Notes: generated by a model from the letters alone, not told the origin. A stretch of 64,000 bases of DNA from a bacterium (GCA_044432745.1 JAWXUH010000001.1:114760-178759); one strand, 5' to 3'; shown: positions 53,507-61,398, counted from the first letter of the stretch. Numbers and translations are program-made.

Positions 53507-54139
53507 CTATCTATCATCTCTATTAATAGATATTTTTTCATATTTTTTTATTTCACTATCATAAAACAATATTGGTATAATACCTGTATTTTCAGTTTCA
53601 CCATCTATATAATAATGATTTTTACCATCATAATAAATATCACCTTTTTCAATATAAGAATTTTCTTTTGCAGCAATTTCAAGTACTGATATATGGCCCG
53701 CTATTATATCTTTATAAAATTCTCCAGTTGTATGTGGATACTTATTACAAAAATTATAATCTTCTACCCCAAACATCCAATATTCACCAGCATCTTCATC
53801 TATTCCAGCATGAACATAAATTTGAGTATCTGTTTCATAATAGTATGGTAATTTTTTGGTCCAATTAATAATATCAGAGTTAATGTTTATTTTTTTGTTT
53901 TTAAAGTCTTCAAGTAAATATAATTCATGGTTGCCCATAAGAGCAATAACTCTATCTTTATATTTTTTTTGAAGATCAATAATTAATTTTATAATTCTTA
54001 CATCCTCGTAATTAAAACGATTTAAATAATCTCCTAGTAAAATCAATTTTGTTTCTTCATCATCTAAATTAATTAAATCAAGATTTTTTTCAAATTCCTC
54101 TATATTTCCATGTATATCACTCATTGCAAATATTTTCAT
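53507..54139 (-). CDS. metallophosphoesterase (calcineurin-like; PrpE/ApaH-type Ser/Thr phosphatase family)
   Basis: 210 aa. Metallophosphoesterase motifs AMSDIHGN, LLGDYLNR and GNHE. Confidence 0.75.
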   Translation of the reverse strand: MKIFAMSDIHGNIEEFEKNLDLINLDDEETKLILLGDYLNRFNYEDVRIIKLIIDLQKKYKDRVIALMGNHELYLLEDFKNKKININSDIINWTKKLPYYYETDTQIYVHAGIDEDAGEYWMFGVEDYNFCNKYPHTTGEFYKDIIAGHISVLEIAAKENSYIEKGDIYYDGKNHYYIDGETENTGIIPILFYDSEIKKYEKISINRDDR

Positions 54140-54392
54140 ATGTTCTCACGTTCCTTTAAAATTTTCCTATATTTTTTAATCATTAAAAAATCAATGACTA
54201 AATAAATATTTCTATTAATTTTGCACCTTAATTATTACATTAACACTTACTAAAGGCAAGTTTTATGACATACTTTCTTCTTTTAATAATTCATCCATAA
54301 GAAGTTTTTCTTCTTCTGTTTCTACATAATTTGATTTACTTCTTGCAGTATTGCTAAGTTCATGCTGCAATTTTTTACACAAATGTTTTATT

Positions 54393-55520
54393 TTATCTTT
54401 TTCTTACTCTTACTCTTTCTTCTTGATATTTATTTTCTAATTCTTCTGAAAGAGACATAAATTTACCATTAAATTCATCTTCTTTATATAAATAATCTAT
54501 ATCTAGCACTACACACTTACCTCTACTTAATTCAGTTTTATTATTTTCTTCTAAACCATTATTTCTTTGGTCTATTTTAGTCATTTTACCTTTATAATAA
54601 CTATAATTAGGTTTAATTAATCTTCCTACATTAAAACTTTTTGCATCATTCCATATAATACCTTGATCTCTTAAATTAGAATATAATTCATATACTTCTG
54701 CACTTCTTATCTCTTTTGTATCAACGTATTCCTCTAATTCTACTATACCTATTTTTTCTCCTATAGAATTTTTTAATTCAAATCTAAAAAAAGGTTGTAG
54801 GATAAATTCGCTATTTGGTGAAATGAATTTCTCTTTTAATTTTCCAACTTTTAATATTTTTTCTCCTATTTGATATACTGTACAATATGCTCCTGTATTT
54901 AACATTTTTATATCTGAAAATTCTAACATCTCATCCTTTAGTATTTCTTCTAGTAATTTTGTAAAAAAATATACATTTATTTCATCTAAATCTTCTTTCT
55001 TAAAGTTATCATCATGTTTTTTTAGCGTAGGTAATATAAAATTCCTAACTACTTGTTCTTTGTTACTTTCGTAATATTCTGTCATATATTTTCTTATGTC
55101 ATTTAAATCTTTAAAACCAAAATTTAGTGAATTATCATTTAATATAAATATTTCTAAATTTTTATAGAAATATCCCATGTAATTAGAAGTTAATTCTAGT
55201 ATTTCTTCTTTTTTAAACTTCATTTTACCTATATATCTTAAGAAAAGATTATAACTAAAATAACTTTCCTCTTCTATTATTTTTTTACATATTAAATCAT
55301 GTTTGACATAGAAAAATTTCCTAAGTTCTTTGTATTCATACATAAATATAAAAAAATCATTTAATTCTTCTTTATCTAGAGAATCAATAATTAAATCAAT
55401 ATTTGTTTCTATTTCTTTTATTCTCTTTTTTTTAAAAAATTTTGATGCTACTATATACTCTCTTAAATTATATAAAAGTACATTATCTTTTTTTGCATTT
55501 ATTATTTCTTCCACTTTCAT
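54393..55520 (-). CDS. atypical protein-kinase-like (PKL) protein with unknown N-terminal helical domain
   Basis: 375 aa. C-terminal ~170 aa carries a Gly-loop-like NTGAYCTVYQI, a beta3 Lys ILKVGK, a catalytic loop IIWNDAKSFNVG (D-x-K-x-x-N) and a DFG-like VVLDIDYLY. The protein ends shortly after, with no activation-loop lobe. Confidence 0.45.
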   Translation of the reverse strand: MKVEEIINAKKDNVLLYNLREYIVASKFFKKKRIKEIETNIDLIIDSLDKEELNDFFIFMYEYKELRKFFYVKHDLICKKIIEEESYFSYNLFLRYIGKMKFKKEEILELTSNYMGYFYKNLEIFILNDNSLNFGFKDLNDIRKYMTEYYESNKEQVVRNFILPTLKKHDDNFKKEDLDEINVYFFTKLLEEILKDEMLEFSDIKMLNTGAYCTVYQIGEKILKVGKLKEKFISPNSEFILQPFFRFELKNSIGEKIGIVELEEYVDTKEIRSAEVYELYSNLRDQGIIWNDAKSFNVGRLIKPNYSYYKGKMTKIDQRNNGLEENNKTELSRGKCVVLDIDYLYKEDEFNGKFMSLSEELENKYQEERVRVRKR

Positions 55521-55638
55521 TTTTTTATTACACCCCTAATTGAAATGTTATTATACACTATTTCTGTAATTTTGCAACATTTTAGTAACAAAAATGTTAT
55601 TTTATATCAATTTAAAAAAATAGAATTACATCTATTTT

Positions 55639-56214
55639 TTAATAATTTATAAATTCTCTGATTTTTTTTTGAACTATATCTTTATCTTCCGAGTTATTCA
55701 AATCAAGTACATTTATGTTCTTGTAATTTCCCTTTATTTCATCACTCATTTGTTGATAAATTTCTTCTTGTTTCACGCTATTTTCTACTGAAAATGCAGC
55801 ATACTTAACATTTGCTTTATCTTCTCTTAATAGCCTTTTTTTGTAATCTTCTTTCTCATTTAAATATAAATTTATATAATAAATTTCAAAATCCAAATTA
55901 TTAAACTCTTTTAACAATTCTTCGTACACATCTGTAAAAATATAATCTTTCTTTCCTAATCTACAGTAATTTTCTTCTGTAAAAAATGTTCTATCAAAAA
56001 CTAAATTTATACTTTTATTTTCTAAACCTTTAGTATATCCCATTAAATGTTCATACATATCTTTTGCTTTTTGTTTACCTGTTGGTGTACTATCACTTGT
56101 TCCACTTAATCTGTATAAATTTGTTCCCGCTAGAGTATTTCTTAGAAAATCTGTTACTGTTGTTTTACCTACACCTTGCGGTCCTTCTACTATAATTAAT
56201 TTTGAATTTGCCAT
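55639..56214 (-). CDS. P-loop NTPase, small nucleoside/nucleotide-kinase-like protein
   Basis: 191 aa. Walker A IIVEGPQGVGKTT. A DR(T/S) motif VFDRTFFTE resembles deoxynucleoside kinases. Confidence 0.45.
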   Translation of the reverse strand: MANSKLIIVEGPQGVGKTTVTDFLRNTLAGTNLYRLSGTSDSTPTGKQKAKDMYEHLMGYTKGLENKSINLVFDRTFFTEENYCRLGKKDYIFTDVYEELLKEFNNLDFEIYYINLYLNEKEDYKKRLLREDKANVKYAAFSVENSVKQEEIYQQMSDEIKGNYKNINVLDLNNSEDKDIVQKKIREFINY

Positions 56215-60425: not shown

Positions 60426-60983
60426 TTAATATCCCTTTGTTTTATATATATTATATAACTCTTCGAATCTATTGAAATGCACGACTTCTCTTTGTCTTAA
60501 AAATAATAATACATTTATTAGATCCTCATCTTCTGTAAGCTCAATTAAATTTTCATATGTTACTCTAGCCTTAGATTCAGCTGCCATATCTTCAACTAAA
60601 TCAGCTATAGGGTCACCTGTAACTTGAAAATATGCTGCTGTAAATGGTGAACCTGATGCATCAACCGGAAAAATACCTTTTCTATGATCTGTAAAATATC
60701 CAGAAAGTCCTGCTTCTTTTATTTCATCTTTTGTTGCTCCAGATAATAACTGATGAATCATTGTAGATATCATTTCAACATGTCCTAACTCTTCTGTTGC
60801 TATATCATTTAAAAGCGCTCTTCCTCTATCACATGGCATTGTATATTTTTGAGAAAAATATCTAAGCGCTGCTCCTAATTCTCCATTTGCTCCACCTAAC
60901 TGAGATAATAAGCATTTAGCCATATTAACATCTTTTTTCTTTATATCTACTGGAAATGATAAAATCTTTTGATATTTATACAT
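60426..60983 (-). CDS. cotJC: spore coat protein CotJC (manganese catalase family, ferritin-like)
   Basis: Start at the ATG (MYKYQKIL) with RBS GGAGGA; the ORF track extends to 61010. Mn-catalase/CotJC motifs ...ATEELGHVEMISTMI.... Confidence 0.8.
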   Translation of the reverse strand: MYKYQKILSFPVDIKKKDVNMAKCLLSQLGGANGELGAALRYFSQKYTMPCDRGRALLNDIATEELGHVEMISTMIHQLLSGATKDEIKEAGLSGYFTDHRKGIFPVDASGSPFTAAYFQVTGDPIADLVEDMAAESKARVTYENLIELTEDEDLINVLLFLRQREVVHFNRFEELYNIYKTKGY

Positions 60984-61398
60984 ATTTAGAATCCTCCTTT
61001 TCCCAAGCATTATTGCCTAACCATAAATTCTTATCAAACACATTTTCACATACCTCAAGTGGTCCATAATTTTTTACGTAATCTTCTTCACATTTTATTA
61101 ATTTATGTATATACTCTTTTAATATATTAAAAACTTTTTCATCATCAGGATGGATATCTAACCATAAATTCAAATCGTTTATAGCAAAATTCAACTCCAT
61201 TATTCTATAAAGTTTGGCATTTTTTTCACAAGTAGTTCTAGGCATCTTAGGTCTATACTCTTTATATTTTGAATATTCTTTTTCAAACATATTACCTTTC
61301 ACAAATCCAGTAGTTGAATCATACAACTCATTTGTACTTTCTTTTTCTTCACTTAATCCCATAAATGATAGAAAATTAAAATCATTTTCAAATAACAT
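60976..61398 (-). CDS. cotJB: spore coat protein CotJB with N-terminal CotJA-like segment (apparent CotJA-CotJB fusion)
   Basis: 140 aa. The C-terminal half matches CotJB (ELNFAINDLNLWLDIHPDDEKV...YGPLEV). The N-terminal part has a CotJA-like G(T/N)(L/M)F...Y..Y segment (GNMFEKEYSKYKEY). 8-nt overlap with cotJC. Confidence 0.6.
   Translation of the reverse strand: MLFENDFNFLSFMGLSEEKESTNELYDSTTGFVKGNMFEKEYSKYKEYRPKMPRTTCEKNAKLYRIMELNFAINDLNLWLDIHPDDEKVFNILKEYIHKLIKCEEDYVKNYGPLEVCENVFDKNLWLGNNAWEKEDSKYV

Follow-up and report, generated by a model that had tools for sequence, protein, structure and literature searches.

The R3Y13_00840 gene encodes a 375-residue bacterial protein that carries kinase-like motifs and ends soon after the last of them, which raises the question of whether so short a domain can be a working kinase and what it would act upon. 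A first-pass annotation had described a minimal, atypical protein-kinase-like domain behind a helical N-terminal part, and had proposed that it pairs with the phosphatase encoded next to it, perhaps in sporulation. We examined the gene within its window (the whole 64 kb stretch of DNA that was analysed). [quoted passage not shown]

Gene product and protein family

The features of the gene product at the level of its domains are as follows.

54393–55520, minus strand: whole gene R3Y13_00840, from the open-reading-frame list (ATG start, 375 residues plus stop)
54984–55520, minus strand: N-terminal all-α domain, residues 1–179, stacked helices in the AlphaFold2 model
54396–54983, minus strand: minimal protein-kinase-like domain, residues 180–375 (αN, β1–β5, helix, catalytic loop, insert, DxD, helix)

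The product is identical to an NCBI entry (P0001) named 'MAG: hypothetical protein R3Y13_00840 [bacterium]'. Re-translation recovers the open reading frame and every motif string quoted in the first-pass annotation, each in its place: NTGAYCTVYQI (residues 208–218), ILKVGK (222–227), IIWNDAKSFNVG (288–299) and VVLDIDYLY (337–345). The protein stops 30 residues past the last of these strings, 33 residues past Asp342. The G+C content of the gene (21.3%) is the lowest in the window (mean 26.9 ± 3.2%) and its GC3 of 10.9% is ordinary. Recent horizontal transfer was considered as the source of the low G+C and was ruled out because of the ordinary GC3; an amino-acid composition rich in Lys, Glu, Ile and Asn accounts for it.

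Single-sequence searches with R3Y13_00840 against Pfam, NCBIfam and the PDB gave nothing relevant, and a word-indexed search of 5.8 billion proteins returned the protein itself and one relative, P0002, which is 29% identical and retains GKGEYS, VLKLGK, DIKKEN and LDTD. An exhaustive HMMER search seeded with the aligned C-terminal halves of these two proteins yielded 786 cluster representatives at E ≤ 1e-3, 577 at E ≤ 1e-10 and 97 at E ≤ 1e-30. All of the matches cover a single C-terminal region of ∼190–220 residues, and the part ahead of it ranges in length from 0 to about 485 residues. The word-indexed search gave 26 unnamed metagenomic proteins when repeated with a 40-member domain alignment, and three matches with a 133-member full-length alignment, where candidates were swamped by low-complexity words. 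R3Y13_00840 forms a subfamily with P0027, P0051 and P0065 (33–36% identity over the full length).

Family members come almost wholly from metagenome assemblies. A profile scan of GTDB species-representative contigs with the four-member subfamily alignment located seven loci, all in MAGs from gut data sets labelled uncultured Clostridia, Clostridium sp. or 'bacterium', and every family locus compared is AT-rich (24–31% G+C). R3Y13_00840 is the sole copy found in a search of the 64 kb window; elsewhere in this MAG, in a different gene context, is the paralog P0065 (R3Y13_04285), with 33% identity. Tandem paralog pairs occur at L010–L013, L014/L015 and L021. No relatives were found among viral contigs (IMG/VR), and a membrane-like hydrophobic stretch is absent from all 170 members scanned. 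As part of the likely reading given above, the family is lineage-restricted, multi-copy, fast-diverging and uncatalogued, and is carried by uncultured low-GC gut-type Firmicutes, with at least two paralogs in the source MAG.

When 40 family domains were scanned singly against Pfam, none was assigned to a family; the sub-threshold matches were to Pox_ser-thr_kin (8.9e-5, one member) and Pkinase (0.09, another). R3Y13_00840 does not match Pkinase (PF00069) at E ≤ 1, and the best member reaches E = 0.005 with 16.7 bits, below the gathering threshold of 31.7 bits. Neither R3Y13_00840 nor the scanned members match the Pfam models RIO1 (PF01163), Kdo/WaaP (PF06293), APH (PF01636) or choline kinase (PF01633). 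NCBIfam gave nothing for the family, PADLOC and PHROGs gave isolated matches with E > 0.002 among 40 members, and any member to which its source gives a name is called a 'hypothetical protein'.

Predicted overall structure

The AlphaFold2 model of full-length R3Y13_00840, calculated with the 133-sequence alignment, has a pLDDT of 91.4 and a pTM of 0.86; for the domain alone, with 40 sequences, the values are 95.9 and 0.89. In a Foldseek comparison with the PDB, 49 of the 50 top matches are protein kinases (JNK3, PKR, p38 and ERK2 among them), with probabilities of up to 0.99 and weak E-values (0.012 or above). A profile of the family domain matches CK2α in the PDB (E values of 0.0018 and 0.018), and the two are in register at the Gly-rich loop, the β3 lysine and the catalytic loop, with GIIWTDIKKENV aligned to GIMHRDVKPHNV (the CK2α loop is RDVKPHN). 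A profile of the full-length protein instead retrieved helical-repeat and de novo designed proteins that match the N-terminus; these matches were rejected as spurious, and the domain-only profile is needed. The predicted fold is therefore that of a kinase, as the first-pass annotation had expected, and not a non-kinase fold. The model is bilobal, as in the PKL superfamily, with an N-lobe β-sheet and a helical C-lobe core, and the β3 Lys, catalytic Asp, Mg-binding Asn and DFG-type Asp follow one another in the superfamily order. The elements of the catalytic domain, with boundaries from the AlphaFold2 model, are as follows.

Residues 180–196: helix αN
Residues 205–209: strand β1
Residues 213–218: strand β2
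Residues 221–226: strand β3
Residues 227–244: non-helical, strongly conserved segment
Residues 245–250: strand β4
Residues 256–264: strand β5
Residues 273–285: lone helix ahead of the catalytic loop
Residues 290–297: catalytic loop
Residues 298–300: strand past the catalytic loop
Residues ∼305–335: hairpin-plus-turn insert between the catalytic loop and DxD, 25–35 residues, variable in length
Residues 336–338: strand β8
Residues 340–342: Asp340-Ile-Asp342
Residues 344–346: strand past DxD
Residues 356–374: long helix, followed by the C-terminus

Between β3 and β4 no αC helix is predicted, despite a pLDDT of about 95 or more, and the family consensus of this segment, IPNHRRILQP, is without an acidic residue. 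Glu192 is located on the helix that precedes β1, inside the conserved domain, and may replace the αC glutamate as the partner of Lys224; an obvious Lys–Glu ion pair is not predicted. The activation segment, the APE motif and helices αF–αI are absent: one strand and one helix follow DxD, and the C-lobe retains just two helices. The loss of the activation segment and of the substrate-binding lobe, which had been remarked upon in this one protein, is thus a family feature, truncation occurring past the DFG-like motif.

Residues 1–179 are helical throughout, and no relative of them could be detected beyond the family, in agreement with the earlier description of some 200 helical, unassignable residues. 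N-termini vary across the family, and a local iterative search of about 110 N-termini (60 residues or longer) found a homologous module, sometimes repeated, in 43 members. Ten long members (586–706 residues) were scanned for fused domains and gave one weak TetR_C_4 and one weak Pkinase match, nothing informative. We propose that the N-terminal domain may serve as a recognition module for a partner or a substrate.

Conserved motifs

Conservation was counted over 139 aligned family domains and is given in R3Y13_00840 numbering.

54945–54947, minus strand: Glu192 in helix αN, before β1 (Glu in 122/139), candidate partner of Lys224
54882–54899, minus strand: Gly-rich loop NTGAYC, residues 208–213 (family consensus G-x-G-x-Y-S)
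54849–54851, minus strand: Lys224, the β3 ('VAIK') lysine in ILKVGK (Lys in 137/139), aligned with the β3 lysine of CK2α
54630–54647, minus strand: catalytic loop Asp292-Ala-Lys294-Ser-Phe-Asn297, D-x-K-x-x-N (Asp292 and Asn297 each in 139/139)
54495–54503, minus strand: Asp340-Ile-Asp342, metal-binding DFG equivalent (Asp340 in 139/139, Asp342 in 137/139)
54399–54455, minus strand: single C-terminal helix of the AlphaFold2 model, residues 356–374, with conserved [FY]-E-x-[RK]-Y-x-x-E

The Lys, Asp, Asn and Asp residues on which the kinase assignment had been based are thus invariant or nearly so among the homologs. Position 294 is Lys in 92 members and Arg in 31, so that 123 of the 139 (88%) have a basic residue there. 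The catalytic aspartate is preceded by Trp290-Asn in place of His-Arg (Trp290 in 123/139), which makes this a non-RD loop. In the Gly-rich loop, Gly210 (138/139), Tyr/Phe212 (129/139), Ser213 (114/139) and Gly208 (90/139) are the conserved residues, followed by Gly219 (137/139). The string first quoted as 'Gly-rich loop-like' does occupy this place in R3Y13_00840 and keeps Gly210, but it is degenerate, with Asn208 for the first glycine and Cys213 for the serine. Further conserved positions are Glu261 (136/139), Arg284 (135/139), Asn305 (138/139) and Gly334 (131/139) and, in the C-terminal helix, Glu362 (114/139), Tyr365 (122/139) and Glu368 (115/139); R3Y13_00840 has Leu361 at the first position of the helix motif. 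Nearly all family matches begin inside or ahead of the helix that bears Glu192.

The family consensus begins with G-x-G-x-Y-S ... V-L-K-x-G ... I-P-N-H-R-R-I-L-Q-P ... I-E and continues, after a gap, with L-Y-x-I-Y-K-E-L-R-x-x-G-I-I-W-T-D-x-K-x-E-N-V-G-R-L ... V-I-I-D-T-D-Y-I-Y ... F-E-x-R-Y. R3Y13_00840 departs from it at G208N, S213C, R229K, H237S, R238E and R239F, the last four of which fall in the conserved β3–β4 segment; the pattern is shared with P0027, P0051 and P0065 and, judged by sequence, makes the protein a somewhat deviant member. That the motifs are not a product of chance follows from their retention in P0002 and from the invariance or near-invariance of Lys224, Asp292, Asn297, Asp340 and Asp342 in the 139 members. 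The predicted fold and the conserved residues agree with one another and with the kinase-like domain originally suggested, and it is very likely that R3Y13_00840 adopts a kinase fold and that its catalytic set is intact.

Comparison with known kinase families

The closest likeness is to the Hanks-type Ser/Thr kinases (PF00069; CK2α, PknB, PKR and CaMKI), with which the family shares the N-lobe β-sheet, the G-x-G-x-[YF]-S loop, the β3 'V-L-K' lysine, the hinge glutamate (Glu261 in R3Y13_00840), the D-x-K-x-x-N catalytic loop (DAKSFN in R3Y13_00840) and the metal-binding aspartate. It differs from them in having no predicted αC between β3 and β4 and no αD, in having W-x-D for H-R-D and D-x-D for D-F-G, and in the 25–35-residue insert between the catalytic loop and DxD. 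The Hanks-type activation segment (DFG...APE) and subdomains IX–XI (αF–αI) are missing from R3Y13_00840 and, with the APE motif, from the family, in which the domain measures ∼190 residues compared with ∼260.

RIO (Rio1/Rio2), Bud32, NleH/OspG and HopBF1 likewise have kinase folds without an activation loop or substrate-binding subdomains, and the OspG/NleH domain is similar in size to that of the present family. RIO kinases possess an αC helix, a RIO-specific N-terminal helix and a loop, H-x-D-L-S-x-x-N, in which the lysine is lacking; RIO1 is not matched by the family at the sequence level, and RIO does not outscore ordinary kinases. The effector kinases NleH/OspG and HopBF1 come from Gram-negative pathogens, whereas the present family is chromosomal, multi-copy and from Firmicutes. 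The D-x-K-x-x-N loop is the Ser/Thr protein-kinase form, and its lysine is lacking in the RIO, Bud32, APH, choline and Kdo kinases.

By the measure of these searches, the family is a new, uncatalogued and pared-down member of the PKL superfamily that the Pfam, NCBIfam, PHROGs and PADLOC models do not cover. Structure-based mining still yields new kinase-like families, as in KINtaro (PMC10870513) and an oral-microbiome PKL survey (bioRxiv 10.64898/2026.09.18.752743). The orphan families of these two studies are likewise divergent kinase folds missed by Pfam and recognized by structure prediction and K/D/N/D motifs, and the comparison made here with the present family is by description. 'Clostridia' does not occur in the preprint text and 'minimal' occurs neither there nor in the KINtaro paper; no description of the family was found in the literature covered.

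Genomic context

The gene next downstream of R3Y13_00840, on the same strand and separated from it by 253 bp, encodes a metallophosphoesterase.

53507–54139, minus strand: PPP/ApaH-like metallophosphoesterase, 210 residues (Pfam Metallophos, 1.4e-13; MSDIHGN and GNHE)

Its best relatives of known structure are PP2A-C (6.6e-6), ApaH (3e-4), calcineurin and λ phosphatase (0.0095), and the earlier description of a calcineurin-like, PrpE/ApaH-type gene, for which 'PPP/ApaH/PrpE-like' is a fair label, holds on the Metallophos and PP2A-C/ApaH matches. The genes cotJB and cotJC lie ∼5 kb from R3Y13_00840, past ruvB, folD, glyA and a P-loop gene. Family loci in general are flanked by chromosomal housekeeping genes, which differ from locus to locus.

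Window (R3Y13_00840): glyA upstream, queA downstream
L010 and L018: dnaE
L014: tig
L001 and L016: pyruvate kinase (pyk)
L017: DnaD/DnaB-like and DnaI-like genes, read from translations

Homologs of the metallophosphoesterase, P-loop protein, glyA, folD, ruvB, queA and tgt of the window were not detected near other members (6–8 kb or the whole of shorter contigs) at E ≤ 1e-5 or at E ≤ 0.5. An all-against-all comparison of flanking open reading frames at 12 loci found as shared neighbours the family itself and local synteny among near-identical organisms.

Proposed function

The domain retains all the residues that ATP-dependent phosphoryl transfer requires, and the protein is most likely a minimal phosphotransferase of the PKL superfamily that uses ATP. 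In the proposed mechanism, the Gly-rich loop would cover the ATP phosphates through Gly210, Lys224 would orient them, Asp292 would act as the base, Lys294 would contact the γ-phosphate as in Ser/Thr protein kinases, and Asn297 and Asp340, together with Asp342, would bind Mg2+. With a loop of the W-x-D type and the activation segment missing, the enzyme would most likely be constitutively competent rather than switched by loop phosphorylation. As the substrate-binding C-lobe is missing, the choice of substrate would most likely come from the variable helical N-terminal domain, to which the 25–35-residue insert between the catalytic loop and DxD may contribute. Protein Ser/Thr residues are favoured as substrates since 88% of members have Lys or Arg two residues past the catalytic Asp.

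We judge the odds to be about even that R3Y13_00840 truly acts as a protein kinase and not as an ATPase or a small-molecule kinase. The latter taken as a rival explanation, in which the kinase fold serves as a RIO/Bud32-like ATP-driven switch or phosphorylates a metabolite, antibiotic, lipid or sugar in the manner of APH, choline or Kdo kinases, seems unlikely. An acidic residue two positions past the DFG-Asp is reminiscent of small-molecule kinases, and Asp342 (137/139) is such a residue; against this, 123 of the 139 members have Lys or Arg at position 294, the significant sequence matches are to protein kinases only (CK2α, Pkinase and Pox_ser-thr_kin), and no member matches Pfam RIO1, APH, Kdo or Choline_kinase. 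A pseudokinase that acts solely as a scaffold is the least probable of the alternatives. It would fit the degenerate Gly-rich loop of R3Y13_00840 (Asn208, Cys213) and the prediction of neither an αC helix nor a Lys–Glu pair, but Asp292, Asn297 and Asp340 are invariant, and Lys224 and Asp342 nearly so, in 139 members that are otherwise just 20–40% identical, a pattern that marks selection on catalysis.

The first-pass annotation had favoured a dedicated kinase and phosphatase acting on one substrate, perhaps in sporulation. The two genes are indeed adjacent on one strand, the neighbour resembles PPP Ser/Thr phosphatases (PP2A-C, calcineurin, λ phosphatase) and cotJB/cotJC fall within the same 64 kb. 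The 253 bp gap, however, gives no sign of co-transcription, and the adjacency is not repeated elsewhere: no metallophosphoesterase was found at 13 of 13 other distinct family loci, including those of the same-MAG paralog R3Y13_04285 and of the closest relative (L017), within 6–8 kb or the whole of shorter contigs (tblastn, E ≤ 0.5), nor is there any Metallophos annotation by Pfam on the annotated contigs. No neighbour of any sort is widely shared among 12 loci, and the cotJ genes, which stand behind housekeeping genes, are not near other members; the spore link, too, is without support. As a conserved system the pair is largely refuted, and as an explanation of this locus it is very improbable; any functional tie to the adjoining phosphatase is scarcely more credible. 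Since none of these 13 loci has a metallophosphoesterase nearby, the adjacency is most simply a coincidence. Slightly better placed, though still improbable, is a conflict system, in which a toxin, abortive-infection or anti-phage kinase would sense an invader through its variable N-terminal domain. In its favour are the lineage restriction, multiple copies and high divergence of the family (33% identity between same-genome paralogs), the tandem duplicates, the variable N-termini and the G+C of R3Y13_00840, which at 21.3% is the lowest in the window, where the mean is 26.9%. Against it stand the lack of PADLOC/PHROGs matches in 40 members, the viral contigs without relatives, the absence of a conserved partner or antitoxin gene, the housekeeping flanks (glyA, queA, dnaE, tig, pyk) and the normal GC3, by which the low G+C reflects amino-acid composition and not recent transfer.

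With the reading of an active, minimal kinase-like enzyme retained, a bolder version of it can be stated, which we regard as speculative and rather unlikely. The family would be a hitherto unrecognized, 'ultra-minimal' kinase class of ∼190 residues with a rearranged N-lobe, in which the canonical αC between β3 and β4 has given way to the conserved, proline-flanked IPNHRRILQP loop and its role, with that of the glutamate paired to the catalytic lysine, has passed to the Glu192 helix before β1. An N-terminal domain of helical repeats, itself diversifying rapidly, would direct the constitutively active core to different targets, either in the cell or in an invader. A core aimed in this way would account for the lineage-specific expansion of the family in uncultured gut Firmicutes, with its multiple copies and tandem duplications.

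If the family is active, the signalling or modifying enzymes of the abundant uncultured gut-type Firmicutes would grow by several hundred sequence clusters, which are invisible to Pfam and NCBIfam annotation; a profile built from the family alignment would let annotators recognize these proteins. With no αC at its usual site, an activation segment missing and a C-lobe of two helices, the predicted structure would push down the bound on how small a working kinase core can be, and could reveal which elements of the kinase fold are truly indispensable. For the field, the advance is incremental unless the substrate or chemistry proves unusual, as new kinase-like families are regularly reported (PMC10870513; bioRxiv 10.64898/2026.09.18.752743).

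Expression signals

Neither R3Y13_00840 nor its two flanking intergenic regions have a match in an Rfam scan. A plausible ribosome-binding site, AGGGGTG, is located ∼10 nt upstream of the start, and a consensus scan gave a promoter candidate farther upstream.

55550–55577, minus strand: candidate σ70-like promoter, TTGCAA-16-TATAAT (10 of 12 consensus matches), upstream of R3Y13_00840

Shuffling predicts as many such sites as this AT-rich region contains, and the candidate (55577–55550) is weak evidence of a promoter. The 253 nt spacer below the gene folds just marginally better than shuffled sequences (z = −1.9).

Genes flanking the kinase-like gene

The kinase-like gene lies among the following features of the window.

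54140–54392 (−): intergenic spacer separating the kinase-like and phosphoesterase genes, 253 nt
55639–56214 (−): P-loop protein gene directly upstream of the kinase-like gene, 191 aa, Walker A GPQGVGKTT
60426–61398 (−): cotJB/cotJC pair, Mn-catalase type

The spacer contains an AT-rich hairpin whose stem is 12 bp long (UCAUUGAUUUUUUAAUGAUU region); its folding has only a slight advantage over shuffled sequences (z = −1.9), and an Rfam search of it returned no match. The P-loop protein matches only families of nucleoside/nucleotide-kinase type, all below threshold (AAA_18, Thymidylate_kin and dNK; dTMP kinase at E = 6.5e-4). No relative of solved structure was found for it, and no homolog of its gene was found beside the family members at the other loci. 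The host organism is probably spore-forming, as the window carries cotJB and cotJC; a tie between this pair and the kinase-like gene was looked for and none was found.

Further copies of the family

Family members also occur as paralogs within one genome and as tandem or split genes on other contigs.

L024 4920–6083: paralog P0065 (R3Y13_04285), 387 aa, same organism, separate contig
L010 6688–9197: tandem paralogs
L014 6738–8903: tandem paralogs
L021 4085–6594: tandem paralogs
L016 7502–8864: gene present as two adjacent ORFs
L018 5472–6756: gene present as two adjacent ORFs

P0065 is 33% identical to the kinase-like protein of the same MAG and is preceded by several unannotated genes (487, 293, 441 and 172 aa) and followed by a Sua5/YciO/YrdC gene. 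The tandem pairs, found in other MAGs, have copies of 433 + 398 aa and 367 + 300 aa, and a 46 aa ORF bridges the two copies on L014. Each split gene may reflect a frameshift, a pseudogene or an error in the assembly.

One further family locus (L017, CAYJBC010000002.1) is titled 'uncultured Muribaculaceae bacterium' in its record. Its G+C content is 26.6% and, in our reading of the ORF translations, it carries genes of Firmicutes type, namely DnaD/DnaB-like and DnaI-like genes, a prepilin-like ORF and a Cys-rich spore-coat-like ORF. The Muribaculaceae label looks wrong or the bin contaminated.
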